DNA from: a virus
Taxonomy: Duplodnaviria; Caudoviricetes
IMG/VR virus record: IMGVR_UViG_3300020362_000765
Span: 1 to 24,619 of that record
Direction: 5' to 3' (one strand)
Length of the DNA stretch: 24,619 bases
Shown here piece by piece: positions 5,288 to 16,967 of this stretch. Position 1 is the stretch's first letter. Every line of letters begins with the position of its first letter. The translations under genes were made by a program, and so were the position numbers. The notes below the pieces were generated by a model. The model saw only the letters and a list, made by a program, of their open reading frames with translations, was not told the origin of the DNA and ran no database searches.

Positions 5288-5995
5288 TTAGGATTTTTTT
5301 TCAGAAGGATTTTTTTTACCGGTAATGTAGTCACGATCGGCATAGAGCTTCTGCCACTCTGGATTCATGTCGTAATAGTACTCCTCGGTGTCTCCAAGCC
5401 TGTACTCATTACCGTTCTCGACCTGATAGTATTCCGTACTCACTTTGAAATCCGGTGTCTTCGGATTCTTTGGCGTCAAACTATTATCATACACACGCAT
5501 ACGATTGTTCGGATACAGAGCGTACTGCCCGTTCTCCAACTCTAACAAGTTAAAAGACTTGTGCTCGTCCGGCTGTTCCGCTGTAGAGTAATCAACCTCG
5601 TCAGAGTGTATGTGATAGTTATCCAAGGTAGCAATGTATGAACCCTTTACACGCCCGTGGTTCTTTGTCCATACCTCGTAATCCATGGATCCAATGAACT
5701 GTTTCTGTATGCAAGTAACACCATAGTCCATACAGTTCCAAAACTGTAGATCCGGTAGAGCCATATCAACATCAGGAGTCTCAGGACTCGATACAAACGC
5801 TGATATCGGTAACTTATCGAAAAGAGCACCGTACTCTGGTAGGAATGTTTCAAAATAGAAGGCGCGACCAGGGATAGACTTCGCAGTTACCCAGTGACCC
5901 TCGACGAACTCACCGTGTCCATCCTCGAGGTCTCGTAGGTACTCACGGCGCACCCAAACTTTCTGATTGGGTATATTACAAATTAAATGCGACAT
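5288..5995 (-). CDS. hypothetical phage protein
   Basis: 235 aa long ORF; WVRREYL, DKLPISAF, QFWNC, EHKSFN, PNNR motifs; function not recognised. Confidence 0.85.
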   Translation of the reverse strand: MSHLICNIPNQKVWVRREYLRDLEDGHGEFVEGHWVTAKSIPGRAFYFETFLPEYGALFDKLPISAFVSSPETPDVDMALPDLQFWNCMDYGVTCIQKQFIGSMDYEVWTKNHGRVKGSYIATLDNYHIHSDEVDYSTAEQPDEHKSFNLLELENGQYALYPNNRMRVYDNSLTPKNPKTPDFKVSTEYYQVENGNEYRLGDTEEYYYDMNPEWQKLYADRDYITGKKNPSEKKS

Positions 5996-6079
5996 AATAC
6001 TATATATCTCCGAAAAAGGTATAGAGACGAAAATTTTCCAGGAAAAAATTTTTAAAAAAGGTTTCTGAAAAAAAGTTCT

Positions 6080-6455
6080 GTGCTCTCTAAAACGCGAACC
6101 ATACTAGTGACCTGTTACAGCCCTGCGCGATTCTGCCAATATAAACCCCTATATAGGTGAGTCACACAGAGGGCCGCAGAGTAACGAAACAGTATACTGA
6201 TATAGTATCTAACCTCGTGGCGCCAGAACGTTACTCTGCGAGTGTCTGAGGGCCGTTGTTCAAGACATCCACCCTACCGACCGATCGGCCCTCTGATAGG
6301 GTGGGATACGTTTTATACTCCGACTCTGGTTCCCTGGGTAGTACCACACCTGTAAACCCCGATGACCTTCACGCTATCTCATTGTCCCTCGGTCACCCTG
6401 TCGGTTACTGTCGCTATCCGTAATCCATATATTATACTCCCTTTTTTACTTTATA
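6080..6455 (-). ncRNA. candidate structured non-coding RNA (boundaries approximate)
   Basis: Downstream of an early promoter; no credible ORF; GC-rich; 12 bp stem 6175-6186/6229-6240; hairpin 6269-6276/6297-6304 whose loop can pair with 6248-6255 or 6167-6176. Confidence 0.5.
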
Positions 6456-6460
6456 TACTT

Positions 6461-6489
6461 ATTATACCACGGTTCGAAAAGAATGTACA
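6461..6489 (-). promoter_or_regulatory. phage early promoter driving the non-coding region
   Basis: TGTACA-N17-TATAAT, followed by AAAGGGAG. Confidence 0.85.
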
Positions 6490-6491
6490 CC

Positions 6492-6512
6492 AAAATAAAC
6501 ATAACATGTTAA
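6492..6512. repeat. 21 bp direct repeat, copy 2
   Basis: Identical to 5028-5048. Confidence 0.85.
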
Positions 6513-6656
6513 ATATATGGGCACTTTTTTGTGTGCTTAGAGAAAAATCTGCGGACTACTGCGGACACTAAGGTATGCGACTGTGTGTACGTTTTCCTTA
6601 GTTTTTATGATTTGTATGTAGACGGTGCACATTGTATATTACGCATATATAGTATT

Positions 6657-6785
6657 ATGAAGAGATTTATAGAAGATTTTATATACTACTATAGGATGTT
6701 TGGACCTCGGTATGGTTGGTTCTGGTCTCTTGAATACAGTCGCTTTAACGCAAGATACTTTAATAGAGACGGTACATGGAGGTAG
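6657..6785 (+). CDS. small aromatic-rich peptide (42 aa)
   Basis: MKRFIEDFIYYYRMFGPRYGWFWSLEYSRFNARYFNRDGTWR; ATG lies within the ATATATAGTATTATG motif. Confidence 0.65.
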   Translation: MKRFIEDFIYYYRMFGPRYGWFWSLEYSRFNARYFNRDGTWR

Positions 6786-6787
6786 AA

Positions 6788-6955
6788 ATGAATGCGACAG
6801 ACTTTATTATGGTTCTTTTGACCGCTTCCTTAGTCTATTTAGGGTTTTCTTTCATATGGATAGGTATGTATTGGGGACTGATATTGATATGGTTCAATAT
6901 GAAGATGTTTGATTATTATTGTATATGGAGAAAGAATGAGATTGATAGAACCTGA
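6788..6955 (+). CDS. small membrane protein (55 aa; not in ORF track)
   Basis: GGAGG RBS; MNATDFIMVLLTASLVYLGFSFIWIGMYWGLILIWFNMKMFDYYCIWRKNEIDRT. Confidence 0.65.
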   Translation: MNATDFIMVLLTASLVYLGFSFIWIGMYWGLILIWFNMKMFDYYCIWRKNEIDRT

Positions 6956-7796
6956 GCACAATACGTTTGATGCGATTATGGCAGACTTAACGCATCAGTG
7001 TAACATGGAGTGTTCGAACTGTTACCTACCGAATAGAGACATACCGGACATGGATAAGGAGAGGTTGTATGACCTTGTCGGTAGGTTACCGAGGCGTACG
7101 TTTATACGTTTGATAGGCGCGGAACCGACGCTGCGAGAGGACCTGCATGACATCGTACGAAAGATCAAGAGTCTTGGTCACCATGTGAGTCTTACCACTA
7201 ACGGATTGAAACTACACAGGATGGACTATGTGCAAAAGCTCAAGAGTGCAGGTTTGCGTCTGGTACTGATATCGATGAACGGTGCGGATGACGACGATGT
7301 GTACAAGCGTGTTGACGGTGGTAAGTACGCTCGACTCAAGAACCGCGCGCTTGATAACTGTATGAGATCGAACCTGATAGTCAATACCGGAACTATAGTA
7401 CTCAAGGACTGTAACGAACACGTCATACCGCGACTCTATCAGAGACTCGGTACGTACAAACCGAGAGTCAAGCCGGTGATGAGACTACGCACGATGGCAC
7501 CGATAGGTCGACACATGGGAGAAGAGTTCATATACGAGTTTGGCGAGTTTCGAGATCGTGTCTGTCGAGAGCTTGATATCACGAATAAATACATACAAGA
7601 ACACTCGGTTGAGGCGTTTAACAACTACAACGGAGTACTGTTTGACATGCCTAACTGTATCGTTCGTATGGTCGACTGGACGGTTGACGACGACGGAGTA
7701 CCAGACAACAGTAACGAGAGTCGAGGCAGGATAACACAGGACTTTAAACTGGCACCGTTTTTTGAACATGTAAAGGAGAATGAATATGGTTACTAG
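6936..7796 (+). CDS. radical SAM protein (MoaA/PqqE-like core)
   Basis: CNMECSNC (CxxxCxxC), IGAEPTL, LTTNG, ISMNG; start set at ATG 6936 behind GGAG. Confidence 0.92.
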   Translation: MRLIEPEHNTFDAIMADLTHQCNMECSNCYLPNRDIPDMDKERLYDLVGRLPRRTFIRLIGAEPTLREDLHDIVRKIKSLGHHVSLTTNGLKLHRMDYVQKLKSAGLRLVLISMNGADDDDVYKRVDGGKYARLKNRALDNCMRSNLIVNTGTIVLKDCNEHVIPRLYQRLGTYKPRVKPVMRLRTMAPIGRHMGEEFIYEFGEFRDRVCRELDITNKYIQEHSVEAFNNYNGVLFDMPNCIVRMVDWTVDDDGVPDNSNESRGRITQDFKLAPFFEHVKENEYGY

Positions 7797-8418
7797 AGAC
7801 AGAAAAGAGTTACCACCGTACGCGAAGATGCCGTACGAGTTTGATATCGAGAGGATCAAGAGCGAGCTCGTTGACATGCCGACCGAGGTTCGTGACTACA
7901 TATCGCTGACCTGTGACGCAAACTCGGCCTACAGTTCCTATGACAAGAACACGTATCACCTGATACCCATAACAGACTTTGACGAAGAGAACGTCAAAGA
8001 GTTTGCGACTTATAAGAAGGCCGGTCGAAAGGACATGAGATTCGATGAGAGACGATACACTAAGATACTTGATTGGGCAAGAAACAGTTACATCGAGGAA
8101 GTGCTTGGTACGTTCAAGGGTCAGGTCACGAGAAGTCACGTGCGAAGAATGAATCCGGGTGGTTACCTTAAATTTCACATGGACTACAACACCAAGTACT
8201 CAGTACGTTATCACATACCTCTAACGACAAACGACGACTGCGTGTTTAAGTTTAAGTTGGAACTCGATGGCGAGGAAGAATGCATGCACATGCCGGCTGA
8301 CGGATCGTGTTACTTCTTTAACCAAGGTTACTATCATCAAGCAGAAAACAACGGCAAGACGGATCGTGATCATCTCGTACTGGCTGTACACGGTCAGGAA
8401 GACATACAACACTTATGA
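7786..8418 (+). CDS. aspartyl/asparaginyl beta-hydroxylase-like 2OG-Fe(II) oxygenase
   Basis: MNPGGYLKFHMDY (HxD)...RYHIPL...MPADG...FFNQGYYHQAENNG...RDHLV; start 7780 or 7786. Confidence 0.85.
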   Translation: MVTRDRKELPPYAKMPYEFDIERIKSELVDMPTEVRDYISLTCDANSAYSSYDKNTYHLIPITDFDEENVKEFATYKKAGRKDMRFDERRYTKILDWARNSYIEEVLGTFKGQVTRSHVRRMNPGGYLKFHMDYNTKYSVRYHIPLTTNDDCVFKFKLELDGEEECMHMPADGSCYFFNQGYYHQAENNGKTDRDHLVLAVHGQEDIQHL

Positions 8419-8957
8419 TTCGAAGGATTGAAAACGACGAGGCGAGTTACCTTTTTGGAATCGCAAGAAGAGACGATCACAAGAACAGTAAGAACTATCT
8501 CGAAAAAAGAATCAAGGACTACATCGCCATACACGTTTATGAGAACGATAATGACGTTATCGCTTTTAGTGGCATCTATCCGTTTCAAAACAATTTTTGT
8601 AGAGTCGCTGACAGAACGTTCGTAATGAAAGAATACAGATCAAAGGGACTGAACTCGCTCGGTCACGGTCAGTTCCTATCACGTAACCTGTTACCTGTAC
8701 AAACGAAGCTTGCGTTGGAACTCGGTTACAATCCTTTCTATTCAATACAGGAAAGAAAGAGAAGAAAGAGTCTCGAGCTTTCAGTTAATGATTTTAACCT
8801 TAACAACGATTATACGTTTTATTATACTGTACTTGACGGAATGTACTACACTTGTGACGAGTATGTCGAAGGAAAAGAGAGTTGTTGGCAAAACGTTGCC
8901 ACTTTAGGAGAACAGAGTGGAATCAAATTTCGTAACACATTTAGACATCGAGTATAA
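8415..8957 (+). CDS. GNAT-fold acyltransferase-like protein
   Basis: VIAFSGI...CRVADRTFVMKEYRSKG (motif A-like); C-terminal SCWQNV. Confidence 0.65.
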   Translation: MIRRIENDEASYLFGIARRDDHKNSKNYLEKRIKDYIAIHVYENDNDVIAFSGIYPFQNNFCRVADRTFVMKEYRSKGLNSLGHGQFLSRNLLPVQTKLALELGYNPFYSIQERKRRKSLELSVNDFNLNNDYTFYYTVLDGMYYTCDEYVEGKESCWQNVATLGEQSGIKFRNTFRHRV

Positions 8958-9456
8958 CGAAGACATACTCTTAATGATAAGTGACGAGGTTAAGTACAAA
9001 CCTTTCACTGCAAAGACAAGACTTACCGAGGAAGAAATGCGTGACAGGTTCGATAAGTCTGATAAAAAGATGGCACAAAAAAATTTCTTCTTTGATGACA
9101 AGAATGGTTGGTTGATTGGTGAGACAGTCAAGGGTTACGAAGAAGTCAATCGTTTAGTTGAATATACAAAATCTAAACTCGGTGACGTCGATATAAGACC
9201 AAGGTTCTACGTGCAGAAAAAAGACGTCTTTGTACCTGAACATAAAGACATTGGCACAGAATGCGCTATCAACATTTTACTTTCAGACGATTGTGCACCG
9301 ATTACTTACAAAGACTTTGGTGACATATATTATAAGTGTGCGCTTATTAACACACAAGAAACACACTGCGTAAACACAGACGTTGAAAGAATACTATTTA
9401 AACTATCAATAATGGATATGAAATATGAAACTGCTGCATCTCGATTACGAAATTGA
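8917..9456 (+). CDS. 2OG-Fe(II) oxygenase-like protein
   Basis: DIRPRFY...VPEHKD (HxD)...CAINILL...ALIN...H...ERILFKLS. Confidence 0.75.
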   Translation: MESNFVTHLDIEYNEDILLMISDEVKYKPFTAKTRLTEEEMRDRFDKSDKKMAQKNFFFDDKNGWLIGETVKGYEEVNRLVEYTKSKLGDVDIRPRFYVQKKDVFVPEHKDIGTECAINILLSDDCAPITYKDFGDIYYKCALINTQETHCVNTDVERILFKLSIMDMKYETAASRLRN

Positions 9457-9916
9457 TAAGAAGAAATATAGAGATATATTTTACGATAACATACAACGCG
9501 GTCAGTGGCACTGGAGCGTAGCAAAGCGACAAGAATTATTTTGGTACCAGTTATTCATACCAGACGGTCATGACATGAAACCACTATTTGAGAATGTTGA
9601 AAAAGAATTAAATATCTTTAAGATGAATAACTATCCAAGATTCAGTTATCAGTTTCCTAATTCTTTATTGCCACATCATGTCGATGAAGATAACATGGTT
9701 TCTATAAATATTAATCTATTTGATACGACACCAATCATTCATATCGACCATGAACCGTATCCATACGAATGTGCATTTATTGACGTAGGTCATAAGATGC
9801 ATGGAGTCGAGAAAGACGCTAACGCAAGACTGATACTAAAGTTTTGTCTTAGACACCCTTACGAGGAGGTGTACGAGAGACTGGACAAGTTTGGACTCTT
9901 AAGTAATGTTTCCTAG
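9425..9916 (+). CDS. 2OG-Fe(II) oxygenase-like protein
   Basis: YPRFSYQ...LPHHVD...SININL...YECAFID...MHGV...RLILKF. Confidence 0.75.
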   Translation: MKLLHLDYEIDKKKYRDIFYDNIQRGQWHWSVAKRQELFWYQLFIPDGHDMKPLFENVEKELNIFKMNNYPRFSYQFPNSLLPHHVDEDNMVSININLFDTTPIIHIDHEPYPYECAFIDVGHKMHGVEKDANARLILKFCLRHPYEEVYERLDKFGLLSNVS

Positions 9917-10390
9917 TATGTGTATTCTCTCTTCACTTGAAGCGTTGACGGCGGTGTGCATCTGAGTCGTATCTACAACGAAGTAGGAACCGTTCGCTGG
10001 TAAGTGACTCATCTTTTCGTTAACCACTACCCAGCAGTGTTCGTTCGTAGTGACCGGTATGTGTATTCTTTTTGTCCTGTCCTTATGATAACTGTAACAG
10101 GTTCTTGGAAGTAACTTCATGACTCGAGTGTGAGTCATATTGTGTTCTTTTATAAACTGATTAACGTACGGTAAGTCAAACAAAGGGTACTTAAACTCGT
10201 CAGTCTTATGGCTATGCCTTTGTTTTCTTTCCCAACTGTTCTGACTTCCGTCTACTCCGCAACCAAGAAAGTAATCGTTGGATCCTTCAACACCCTGTAG
10301 ACAAATTTGTTTCTTAAACTCTGGTAGTATTGATAGCTCAAGTAATATTCTCTCAATATCAAGTTCTGACTTTATCTCTTTAAAGTGCAC
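9899..10390 (-). CDS. AspH-like 2OG-Fe(II) oxygenase (short form)
   Basis: RVMKLLPRTCYSYHKD...RIHIPV.TN...HLPANG...DTTQMHTAVNAS...RIHILG; likely GTG start at 10390 (the track start at 10513 overlaps the neighbouring gene). Confidence 0.82.
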   Translation of the reverse strand: MHFKEIKSELDIERILLELSILPEFKKQICLQGVEGSNDYFLGCGVDGSQNSWERKQRHSHKTDEFKYPLFDLPYVNQFIKEHNMTHTRVMKLLPRTCYSYHKDRTKRIHIPVTTNEHCWVVVNEKMSHLPANGSYFVVDTTQMHTAVNASSEERIHILGNIT

Positions 10391-10871
10391 TGTTAATTCT
10401 ATCGAGCGCTTGTTCGTACGTAATATCGAATATCGAAAACTTAAGTAGGAGTCTCTCGTTGGTATGAGCCGGCACCTTATGTTTCTTTGTGATGTTAAGT
10501 AAGGCACACTCATAGTCTACTTTACCGATGTCTTCAAACACGAACGGACCATTATCGTCTGAAAGCATGATATTGACGCAACATTTCGTATTAATGTCGG
10601 CATGTAACGGTACGGCGCTGTTGGCGCTCTGTTTGTAGAATCTTGGTCTTATATCCTCAGTCGAAAGTTTTGCCATGAAGTAATCTACTAATCTTCTTGT
10701 TTCTTTACACTTTGAAGTATCGACGTGTCCTTGTTGCCAAGTAGGAGCCTCGTCAAACCAAGAACCATTGTTGAAACCTGACTTAAACGCTGCAAACTCT
10801 GTAACCTTTGACTCTTCAATAAGTGCTTCTTTGTCGTACATAATATCGAGTTCTTTGTAATATGTTTCCAT
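10380..10871 (-). CDS. 2OG-Fe(II) oxygenase-like protein, paralog of 8917..9456
   Basis: DIRPRFY...VPLHAD...CCVNIMLSDD...YECALLN...H...ERLLLKFSI. Confidence 0.78.
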   Translation of the reverse strand: METYYKELDIMYDKEALIEESKVTEFAAFKSGFNNGSWFDEAPTWQQGHVDTSKCKETRRLVDYFMAKLSTEDIRPRFYKQSANSAVPLHADINTKCCVNIMLSDDNGPFVFEDIGKVDYECALLNITKKHKVPAHTNERLLLKFSIFDITYEQALDRINSAL

Positions 10872-11423
10872 TTATCTATTTATCCAATCTATTTTTTCAC
10901 CAGTAAAAATTACGTGTTGGTAACACGTATCGTCACTACCGTCTGCAACCTTACACAATTTATCCTCCATGTACCATTTATTCTTCGACCTACCGTTGAG
11001 ATACTCGACTAACATCTTACACCATCTTGGTTTGTGTGCGTGTAGCGTGAAGAAAGAAGTCTGAGCCTGTCTTCTTTTAAGAAAAAAGACCTGTTGATCT
11101 AACATTGATATCGTTCTTGCGTTCATTGGTATGTGTTTTTGATAGCCTGCACGGTACTTCGGTAGTATAAAGTATCGGCTTAACACTCTATAAGTGTCAT
11201 ATGGCCAGTATTCTCTTTCCATAATTGTTGATAATCCAACAATATCGTTATGTTGAGTTATAAGAGTACAAGCGATAGTATCTTGTAGCGTAAAGTTTTT
11301 ATAATTGTTTCCATGTTTATTGTCATGAACAGCGTTACGATTTAACCAAAAAGTTATCTTTTCGAGAGGTATGTCACTACGCTCAAACGTAGTTATTATA
11401 TTCTGTAAGGTCCTGTAAGTCAT
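10872..11423 (-). CDS. GNAT-fold protein, paralog of 8415..8957
   Basis: DIVGLSTI...YRVLSRYFILPKYRAG...TCYQHV. Confidence 0.65.
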   Translation of the reverse strand: MTYRTLQNIITTFERSDIPLEKITFWLNRNAVHDNKHGNNYKNFTLQDTIACTLITQHNDIVGLSTIMEREYWPYDTYRVLSRYFILPKYRAGYQKHIPMNARTISMLDQQVFFLKRRQAQTSFFTLHAHKPRWCKMLVEYLNGRSKNKWYMEDKLCKVADGSDDTCYQHVIFTGEKIDWINR

Positions 11424-12159
11424 CTTGGTTTTGCGTGTCTACAATTAAATGTATTCTATTTACGTTAGAATTATTTTCTGCCCAGTGTATGTGTCCCGCA
11501 TTAAGAAAGTAAACTCTACCGTCTGCAGGAAAATGTGTACGATACTCTACGTTCTTTTTCTTGACTCCCATTAAACACTTTTTATTAGTAATTAAAGGGA
11601 TATGAAAACGTGTAATGTAAGAAGGATCATAATCAATGTGTGGTTTTAAACTAAAGTTTGGTGCAAGATATGCGAATCGTACTCTTGCAAGTTTACCCTT
11701 AAACATGTTAAGAACCTTTTCAACTTCACCGATTACCAGTTCATTCTTTTTTCCATAGTTATGCTCGTCAGCCTCTGGCCTATATGTCTTACTTGAAGAA
11801 TCTAACCTACGCGTTCTACTCATGATTGTTGACTTTATTGGTACATGATTCTCTTGTACATAGTCTTGCCTTGCTTTTATCAAATCATTGTCGTGTAATT
11901 CTGTTAAGTATCTTTGTTTGTATACTTGACTCTCAAGATAGTCCTCACTACTATCCTTAAAAAAACTTTCTTTACAGAATTCGTTTGCAATAACAAATCC
12001 TTTCATAAACGAGTTCGAACTTACATTGATATCATTGTATAAATCGGTATCAAAATAATTGTTCTTAAAACAAAATTTCAGTAATTGTTCAATATCAACT
12101 TTATAATTGTTTAGTACACCAAAGTTTGGTAACTGTTTTCTATTTCGTGTGATGGTCAT
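11383..12159 (-). CDS. AspH-like 2OG-Fe(II) oxygenase, paralog of 7786..8418
   Basis: N-terminal TRNRKQLP; RVRFAYLAPNFSLKPHIDY...RFHIPL...FPADG...FLNAGHIHWAENNS...RIHLIV; likely start 12159. Confidence 0.85.
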   Translation of the reverse strand: MTITRNRKQLPNFGVLNNYKVDIEQLLKFCFKNNYFDTDLYNDINVSSNSFMKGFVIANEFCKESFFKDSSEDYLESQVYKQRYLTELHDNDLIKARQDYVQENHVPIKSTIMSRTRRLDSSSKTYRPEADEHNYGKKNELVIGEVEKVLNMFKGKLARVRFAYLAPNFSLKPHIDYDPSYITRFHIPLITNKKCLMGVKKKNVEYRTHFPADGRVYFLNAGHIHWAENNSNVNRIHLIVDTQNQDDLQDLTEYNNYV

Positions 12160-12682
12160 TATGATTTCCTTCGAATGGTGCAAATAAATTAATCCACCAT
12201 CTATTTATTGGTCCTTTATTGTCATGTCCAAACAAGTTTAACATACCATAAAAAATGTATGAACATATAAAAGTAAATGCTAAGTATAACATAAACGGAT
12301 AAAAAAGTACATAACTAATTGCTAAAATATAGTATCTGTACTTATGAAAAAATATTACTCTTGGATTTTTAAATAAATCTTTTACAAACTTACGTGGTAT
12401 GTTATTAACTCTCCAAGTTGAAAATAATATCTGCCACCATTTATTATACTTAGGACTGTGTGGATCTTTTTTAGTGTCGGCATATGCATGGTGCATTCTA
12501 TGTACTCCAGACCAACTTAACGCTGACTGGCCTCCGCACAATACACCACAATATAACATTACAACTTCAATCGTAGGATGTACTTTAAAATCACGATGCG
12601 CAAAGTATCTGTGAAAACCAAAAGTGATACCTACGGTTGCAAGTATGTAATAAGTCAAATATGCATATAAAAGATCAATCAA
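12140..12682 (-). CDS. membrane fatty-acid desaturase (delta-9/DesC-like), compact
   Basis: GITFGFHRYFAH, HRMHH, DPHSP, EGNHNDHH His boxes and TM segments. Confidence 0.88.
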   Translation of the reverse strand: MIDLLYAYLTYYILATVGITFGFHRYFAHRDFKVHPTIEVVMLYCGVLCGGQSALSWSGVHRMHHAYADTKKDPHSPKYNKWWQILFSTWRVNNIPRKFVKDLFKNPRVIFFHKYRYYILAISYVLFYPFMLYLAFTFICSYIFYGMLNLFGHDNKGPINRWWINLFAPFEGNHNDHHTK

Positions 12683-13059: not shown

Positions 13060-13133
13060 TGGAGAGGATACTTGGATTCGAACCAAGGTAAATGGATTTG
13101 CAGTCCATTGCATAGCCACTCTGCCATACCCTC
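13060..13133 (-). tRNA. tRNA-Cys(GCA)
   Basis: GAGGGTA-TGGCAGAGTGGCTATGC-AATGGA-CTGCAAA-TCCAT-TTAC-CTTGG-TTCGAAT-CCAAG-TATCCTC-T-CCA; full cloverleaf, U73 discriminator, encoded CCA. Confidence 0.97.
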
Positions 13134-13135
13134 AT

Positions 13136-13398
13136 GGTGGTGAGATTCTGTTTCCAAGCTCTCACCAAGCTCATAGGAATTACGCTGCTTGCGCGAACTC
13201 CTGAGGTGCAAAGTTATCGTTTGCATTTAGAGTTTTGTTACGTTAACCGAGCTTCCACCGGATAACTCCACATCGTTATTCTGTACCTGTCGATCCTATT
13301 TCAGCCCCATCAAAACTACTCGATAACAGTGTTTTTGGTGGAGCTGACGGGTACCGCCCCCGTGTCCAGTGAACATTTCACTTTGCTTCATCGTTATA
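13136..13398 (-). ncRNA. ssrA: two-piece (circularly permuted) tmRNA
   Basis: Acceptor piece ...GACACGGGGGCGGTACCCGTCAGCTCCACCA ends at 13336; 27 nt intervening segment 13309-13335; coding piece starts GGGGCTGAAATAGGATCGAC at 13308; tag 13180-13224 = ANDNFAPQEFAQAA*; outer ends approximate. Confidence 0.95.
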
Positions 13399-13406
13399 TA
13401 GTATAT

Positions 13407-13435
13407 ATTATACTACAAAATTTAGCATTTGTACA
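13407..13435 (-). promoter_or_regulatory. early/sigma70-type promoter for tmRNA-tRNA
   Basis: TGTACA-N17-TATAAT. Confidence 0.85.
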
Positions 13436-13444
13436 CCTTTTTTT

Positions 13445-13452
13445 TATAAATA
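13445..13452 (+). promoter_or_regulatory. T4-type late promoter
   Basis: TATAAATA ~22 nt upstream of ATG 13475, with a GAGG RBS between them. Confidence 0.75.
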
Positions 13453-16938: not shown

Positions 16939-16967
16939 ATTATACCATATAAAAAAGGCCTTGTACA
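16939..16967 (-). promoter_or_regulatory. phage early promoter
   Basis: TGTACA-N17-TATAAT. Confidence 0.85.

Follow-up and report, generated by a model that had tools for sequence, protein, structure and literature searches.

Between two divergent genes of a marine T4-like phage lies a portable RNA module of ~200 nt that is very probably a functional structured RNA. Its H-type pseudoknot is proven by covariation, it is uncatalogued, and it likely works as a stand-alone RNA, of a type that has so far entered no catalogue; we infer its function below. The original prediction had described positions 6080–6489 as a single structured RNA of ~380 nt. The RNA is real, but it covers ~200 nt (6444–6246), and the stretch consists of two separable elements. 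For the 5' 200 nt, the prediction of an undescribed phage ncRNA is upheld by covariation, the absence of a shared open frame, the absence of an Rfam match and contigs from RNA libraries.

The phage and the locus

The window, i.e., the whole stretch of 24,619 nt that was analysed, is one linear 24.6-kb virus record (IMGVR_UViG_3300020362_000765). Its proteins match those of T4-like marine phages, and the best cultured relatives of one window gene are the phages C48C1 and Melnitz, both Kyanoviridae. The window encodes a two-piece alphaproteobacterial-type tmRNA (13136–13451, Rfam). Judging from the tmRNA type only, the host is probably alphaproteobacterial; a tmRNA-based host search across 401 genomes, all from one class, yielded a single weak match. 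A tRNA gene (13063–13133) and the tmRNA gene lie under the same early promoter type as the RNA module, and the tmRNA tag peptide is identical in two relatives (L403, L405). An island at 6909–12682 includes genes for a radical SAM protein and at least one 2OG-Fe(II) oxygenase-like protein; several ORFs in it look alike and alternate between strands.

The RNA module is placed in a 640-nt intergenic block with divergent genes on either side (Table 1), and G+C content is 53% for 6243–6430 vs. 35% overall. One 14-nt, leaderless-promoter-like motif ends at the ATG of both divergent genes (6006–5993 on the minus strand, 6646–6659 on the plus strand), such that the pair brackets the block. The phrog_3704 gene is flanked by a 26-nt imperfect inverted repeat of A/T tracts (5290–5315, 6054–6079). 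Upstream of the promoter, at 6602–6567, there is a 7-bp inverted repeat with a 22-nt loop, which is kept in L002, L081, L086 and L089 and broken in L088.

Table 1. Features of the RNA locus and its surroundings (positions in the window).
Feature	Position	Strand	Basis or remark
Sigma70-type early promoter, TGTACA-17-TATAAT, extended -10	6461..6489	-	motif comparison within the window
Shine-Dalgarno (SD)-like site AAAGGGAG	6437..6444	-	8 nt before AUG
Mini-ORF MDYG*	6414..6428	-	MT* (AUG-ACA-UAG) in most relatives
Conserved RNA module, ~200 nt	6246..6444	-	comparison of homologues; RNA contig X11 covers 6244-6444
Predicted long-range helix P1 (6404-6400 with 6324-6320)	6320..6404	-	closes the three-way junction
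Hairpin P2, 7 bp, covarying	6361..6397	-	variable purine-rich loop containing the non-conserved MR* (6382-6374)
Nearly invariant core	6306..6360	-	predicted P3 (6358-6354/6332-6328), hairpin P4 (6350-6337), A-rich linker
H-type pseudoknot	6248..6304	-	stem 1 6304-6295/6278-6269; stem 2 6293-6286/6255-6248
Separate 3' element: stem with covariation, enclosing a loop of 40-46 nt	6175..6240	-	follows both RNA and protein passengers
Alternative partner of the pseudoknot loop, 10 nt	6167..6176	-	perfect only with the window's allele
Terminator-like hairpin (6172-6146) running into locus motif (6149-6136)	6136..6172	-
A/T tracts, part of the fixed locus scaffold	6030..6080	.
Downstream gene (phrog_3704)	5288..5995	-	own leaderless-type motif immediately before ATG (6006-5993)

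Bounds and structure of the RNA module

The 3' bound of the module is set by its second locus (see below), where similarity stops just past the pseudoknot. The pseudoknot itself was confirmed at 6304–6248, with two 8-bp Watson-Crick stems, stem 1 reaching 10 bp when a G-U pair is counted; none of 1000 dinucleotide shuffles of 6080–6489 attained a pseudoknot with 8/8 pairs. All 15 aligned sequences have the pseudoknot, with a stem 1 of 10–12 bp and a stem 2 of 7–8 bp. Stem 2 is paired in every complete sequence and occurs in several sequence versions, to which L452 adds another. With 13 of 59 pseudoknot columns invariant, shape is kept while sequence is free.

Covariation among homologues, proposed with the original prediction as a check, was found for the pseudoknot and hairpin P2. 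In an alignment that was fitted to the structure and comprises closely related sequences (70–99.5% identity), in which the pair changes represent few independent events, 8 of the 10 stem 1 pairs and 3 of the 7 P2 pairs changed on both sides. Stem 1 had zero unpaired cells in this model-fitted alignment, and the outcome for P2 was the same on an unfitted one. The covariation score was reached by none of 500 shuffles, slid controls were 31–52% paired, and G-U variants agree with the minus strand. In loop 3 of the pseudoknot (6268–6260), the first three bases are an invariant AUG; a stop comes after one further codon in 14 of 15 sequences (the exception is L351).

The core is nearly invariant, with 45 of 53 columns unchanged across 14 sequences (three short junk rows and the cut L451 are excluded). 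P1 and P3 are invariant and show no covariation; one P1 pair is broken in L451/L452. The core fold is predicted, not settled: a three-way junction (P1, P3, P4) is favoured in most sequences and a chain of hairpins in L451/L452. A second pseudoknot in the 5' domain found no support, as the candidate crossing helix never varies. Nested folding energy was not better than that of shuffles (z = -0.52 for the region, z = 0.66 for 6243–6450), so the evidence for structure is comparative. A search of seven stretches for antisense or repeat matches to the core returned none below E 2.6.

Promoter, ribosome-binding site and mini-gene

Transcription would run on the minus strand from the promoter at 6461–6489, probably starting near 6454. 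As originally proposed, this promoter and the ribosome-binding site are common to protein-coding cassettes (at 16967, 16623, 5271 and 5004); the promoter motif heads four SD-bearing coding cassettes as well as the tmRNA gene in the window. The SD-like site occurs in three sequence forms and was present in 21 of 22 distinct contexts, the 22nd being cut by a contig end.

Both predicted reading frames, the MDYG* mini-ORF (6428–6414) and the MR* micro-ORF (6382–6374), exist in the window, and they differ in conservation. MR* was found in only 3 of 17 distinct sequences. The mini-ORF reads AUG-ACA-UAG in 15 of 17 sequences, MDYG* being an in-frame variant of the window lineage, and its stop is always UAG, followed by CGA. 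All members retrieved by a core-only pattern have the SD, AUG, one or three sense codons and UAG-CGA, and a minigene (SD, AUG, 1–3 codons and stop) was recognised in 21 of 22 distinct contexts, the last ending with its contig. Among 103 long ORFs counted in five stretches, 17 stop at UAG and none of these has a C after it; UAG-C stops are weak.

The tmRNA gene has the same promoter type without a ribosome-binding site, and the minigene is kept in the module; this suggests that the ribosome site matters to the module. The SD and AUG may also travel with the shuffled cassette, and pairing in a predicted outer helix may be what preserves the UAG. No reading frame is open from the AUG in any sequence, and none is open in all 17 distinct sequences. 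Frameshifting, readthrough and hopping were rejected because no conserved frame leads into the pseudoknot in these 17 sequences. In the +1 frame after the UAG (6413–6393), which is served by no start codon, variation falls mostly at third positions and includes a synonymous double change in an Arg codon.

Presence in RNA libraries

Metatranscriptome contigs lie over the module in all eight RNA runs examined (six studies, out of 22 runs, picked for containing the 6080–6489 stretch). This agrees with the predicted transcript at the level of presence in RNA libraries, since such contigs are strandless and may contain DNA carried over. One contig (X11) comprises the module almost exactly, being 201 nt in whole (6244–6444). 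Others span 6261–6468 (X13, with one end inside the pseudoknot), 6177–6427 (X9), 6160–6472 (X12), 6159–6441 (X8), 6104–6470 (X6, in two pieces) and 6025–6499 (X5). The longest (X1, 5889–6604) includes the neighbours at similar depth. Seven runs have no cover beyond the cassette, an absence given no weight here because the 6080–6489 stretch was the basis for selecting the runs. One 3' end thus falls at the pseudoknot, one inside it (6261) and six beyond it (6177, 6160, 6159, 6104, 6025 and 5889). The three ends near 6160–6177 give a weak hint of a transcript end at the terminator-like site, and the single end at the pseudoknot gives a similarly weak hint of trimming to that structure.

A separate 3' element with alternative passengers

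The 12-bp stem noted downstream of the pseudoknot (6240–6229/6186–6175) is present and belongs to the separate 3' element, in which 7 of 17 predicted pairs have changed on both sides. The 3' half of the stretch (6245–6040) occurs upstream of the phrog_3704 gene in 31 distinct loci (34 found, minus the chance matches L095 and L165 and the cut L146). The start of the cassette is readable in 20 of these loci; 15 carry a protein gene (53–95 aa) and five carry the RNA. The 15 protein genes have the same promoter and SD as the RNA, and no frame of the RNA shows a relationship to their products (best E 2.2). An intact ORF behind the same ribosome-binding site had been named in advance as the sign of a decayed gene; such ORFs do exist in relatives, but they are not homologous to the RNA (E ≥ 2.2) and are alternative passengers of a shuffled cassette. 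Two related families of 53–95-aa early proteins fill the RNA's slot in L082, L083, L086, L104 and L462, and one of the two recurs at a different position in G001.

Besides the covarying stem, 6245–6030 contains a fixed 14-nt motif, a -10-like box 17–18 nt further on and the A/T tracts; its role may be that of a weak promoter, an origin or a structured 3' end. The terminator-like hairpin closes on all four G in 5 of 5 RNA-bearing loci vs. 0 of 21 others, with the locus motif 6149–6136 having itself served as the search pattern, and 6136–6172 is likely the end of the primary transcript in the window lineage.

The original prediction also held that the pseudoknot loop could switch to a 10-nt downstream partner. 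This partner (6176–6167) is present, but the perfect match needs the window's allele at 6173; the other allele was found in L081, L116 and 4 of 4 RNA runs compared. In the window, the downstream duplex is predicted to be stronger than the local stem 2 (-21.1 vs. -18.1 kcal/mol), while it is the weaker one in the other 10 of 11 sequences. The 20 contigs with the second locus are without the 3' element that carries the partner. The switch is therefore not conserved, with the alternative pairing winning only in the window's allele (one of five same-slot sequences). A conserved, mutually exclusive pairing that controls a terminator or SD, as expected of an attenuator or riboswitch-like element, was not found: the downstream duplex is the stronger one in 1 of 11 sequences. 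The partner overlaps the terminator-like hairpin (6172–6146), and a lineage-specific attenuator is conceivable, though it would not be the conserved function. Both palindromes that had been pointed out (6190–6199, 6148–6157) exist, but at chance level: at least two 10-nt palindromes occurred in 158 of 2000 shuffles, and the whole-window mean is 0.78 per 410 nt.

Distribution and relocation of the module

Besides the window, the module was found in 28 marine T4-like phage contigs (a hand count by contig names), of which five carry it in the window's slot and 20 at a second locus before a gene for a small hydrophobic protein; three are cut. In the group of 20, the next gene begins ~30 nt past the pseudoknot and has its own ribosome-binding site beyond it. 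Each of the contigs searched holds one full copy of the RNA.

Two genomes are reciprocal in this respect. G001 has the RNA in the window's slot, and at its second locus the homologous small gene directly follows the upstream neighbour, without promoter or RNA. G003 shows the converse arrangement: its RNA is at the second locus, and the window's slot is taken by a 95-aa gene. The RNA has thus been kept while the downstream gene changed, which favours a function of its own over a leader role; the loss of the cassette from G001 is compatible with a leader role in other phages. These reciprocal genomes show that cassettes with early promoters exchange RNA genes and protein genes alike, and they speak for the RNA being retained on its own account. 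The separation of the RNA from the 3' element, together with this reciprocal relocation, is what the locus contributes.

Wider searches added no members. A pattern scan of GTDB gave three matches, none of them a member, and a loose viral pattern, with 15 of 64 parts covered, gave no new member among 120 loci; L084, L085 and other pattern rows were dropped as chance matches. BLASTn against cultured phages returned short chance matches only. A search with model R2 of 48 contigs and genomes (including C48C1 and Melnitz, mostly fragments, with no positive control) found nothing.

Comparison with known RNAs and cassettes

The original prediction recognised no tRNA, tmRNA, RNase P or hammerhead motif, and no Rfam family matches the module either: covariance-model scans with Rfam 15 yielded nothing credible at E ≤ 5 for the window or at E ≤ 10 for 6000–6650 and five homologous loci. 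Rfam finds only the true tmRNA at 13136–13451, ARAGORN reports no gene at the RNA in L403, L404 and L406, and the hatchet ribozyme model (RF02678) gave 0 matches at the element in four contigs at E ≤ 10. The two-piece alphaproteobacterial tmRNA, of which the phage has a real one, likewise combines pseudoknots with a short frame and faces the ribosome; unlike it, the module is without a tRNA-like domain, a conserved tag frame or Rfam similarity.

Lambda bar minigenes consist of an SD, AUG, one sense codon and UAG. The minigene in the EHEC LEE1 leader is built in the same way (PMC3262186; here and below, published systems are compared on the basis of parts of the cited papers). Unlike both, the phage minigene leads into a conserved folded domain plus a pseudoknot, and it has no fixed link to one next gene. 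The repeated early promoter with SD and the shuffled passengers correspond to the PeSL cassettes of T4-type phages, which share a sigma70-like early promoter leading to an SD and start codon (PMC2839356). Their passengers are interchangeable, and here passengers are swapped between slots; the likeness covers the promoter, the SD and the shuffling of passengers, whereas the passenger in the present case is a 200-nt structured RNA. With type III antitoxins and the phage pseudo-ToxI RNA (PMC5086642), the module shares an H-type pseudoknot, single-stranded flanks and occurrence as a phage RNA. Unlike those antitoxins, it is larger, variable in sequence and single copy in each contig searched, with one 57-nt pseudoknot instead of tandem 34–36-nt (ToxI) repeats and no toxin gene seen adjacent.

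Literature searches by sequence words and by topic turned up no description of this RNA. Four supplement files of the catalogue in PMC10690425 had no match, and a listing in its alignment files, which were not covered, is possible. The parts consulted of PMC7029224 and PMC9004378 report none, and the former, a survey of pelagimyophages, found no riboswitches.

Proposed function and alternative explanations

We tentatively favour, at somewhat below an even chance, a stable stand-alone early RNA with a ribosome-shielded 5' end, a pseudoknot-shielded 3' end and a partner-binding core. The module, portable between phage early-promoter cassettes, would be made as a stable RNA in its own right. Protection of the 5' end would come from a ribosome loaded on the mini-gene and that of the 3' end from the pseudoknot, which would block decay by shape alone; the invariant core would act in trans by binding a partner in the host, most probably the parked ribosome or a protein of translation or defence. 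RNase J is present in Alphaproteobacteria. There is a precedent for the 5' end: on the hbs mRNA of Bacillus subtilis, which has a strong SD near its 5' end, initiating ribosomes block the 5' exonuclease RNase J1 (PMC5737220), and by analogy a ribosome could block 5' decay here too. The hbs site protects a coding mRNA, whereas the phage module would protect a non-coding fold. A narrower and more speculative form of this idea, which we consider doubtful, is that of a ribosome-docking RNA, in which a ribosome parked on the slow UAG would allow the core to dock at the mRNA entrance and act in trans. Such an RNA would hold or reprogram host ribosomes early in infection or neutralise a translation-surveillance defence. 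The core begins ~13 nt after the start of the UAG, which, from the size of a ribosome footprint, may be near the expected edge of a ribosome parked there.

Of the competing accounts, a cis-acting leader or attenuator deserves most attention, although we consider it unlikely. Here, translation of the mini-gene would set the fold and so tune the downstream early gene or a terminator, much as the two-codon minigene of LEE1 acts in cis (PMC3262186). The module always heads an early transcript, with a gene ~30 nt past the pseudoknot in 20 of 28 contigs; its core has two competing predicted folds, between which a ribosome on the UAG could bias the choice; and the alternative partner of the window's loop overlaps the terminator-like hairpin. 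Yet in G001 the downstream gene persists without the cassette and the RNA sits elsewhere, the next SD lies outside the pseudoknot, inspection by eye of the group of 20 revealed no terminator hairpin, and the antiterminator pairing prevails in one same-slot sequence of five. It is improbable that the module is a stabilised toxic-minigene message of the lambda bar type, which would drain tRNA or ribosomes to shut down host translation and owe its long life to its folds. The strong early promoter, the SD and the prevalence of AUG-ACA-UAG (15 of 17 sequences) would suit such a message, and toxic minigenes inhibit protein synthesis through peptidyl-tRNA accumulation in Pth-defective cells (PMC2490762, in part); but the window lineage has swapped codons (MDYG), so that no single tRNA would be targeted, and the invariant 53-nt core would be unexplained. 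A new class of ribozyme for self-cleavage or processing, to which the compact multi-helix fold and many invariant joining bases might point, is distinctly improbable given the lack of an Rfam match (including hatchet) at E ≤ 10 and the RNA contigs that cross the core intact.

The remaining accounts fare worse still. A mimic of a pseudoknotted type III antitoxin, acting as an anti-defence decoy, would be consistent with early expression, the H-type pseudoknot after an A-rich linker and the precedent of phage pseudo-ToxI (PMC5086642), but a single 57-nt pseudoknot differs from tandem repeats of 34–36 nt and is the least conserved part of the module in sequence, making the decoy very improbable. 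We give even less credence to a primer RNA for an R-loop replication origin, which the original prediction had raised. The early promoter and the G-rich transcript, followed by A/T tracts in a divergent 640-nt intergenic block, invite the idea, and T4 origins have a similar layout of promoter, transcript and A/T tract. The RNA, however, moves between loci without the A/T tracts: in 20 contigs it is found away from this scaffold, and of the 20 scaffolds that could be read, 15 have a protein gene in its place; any origin here would be the 3' element, not the ~200-nt RNA. Least credible is a decayed protein gene. ORFs stand behind the same SD in relatives, and of the 7 variable sites within the 24 nt that follow the UAG, 5 are at third positions of one frame. 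This explanation is largely refuted by the lack of a frame open in all sequences, a periodicity that stops before the core, slot proteins that are unrelated (E ≥ 2.2) and helices that covary.

Marine T4-like phages have so far yielded few functional non-coding RNAs. With its small size, defined bounds, support from covariation and occurrence in ocean RNA, the module lends itself to synthesis and direct testing. If the ribosome-docking reading were true, it would represent a new phage route to take over host translation.
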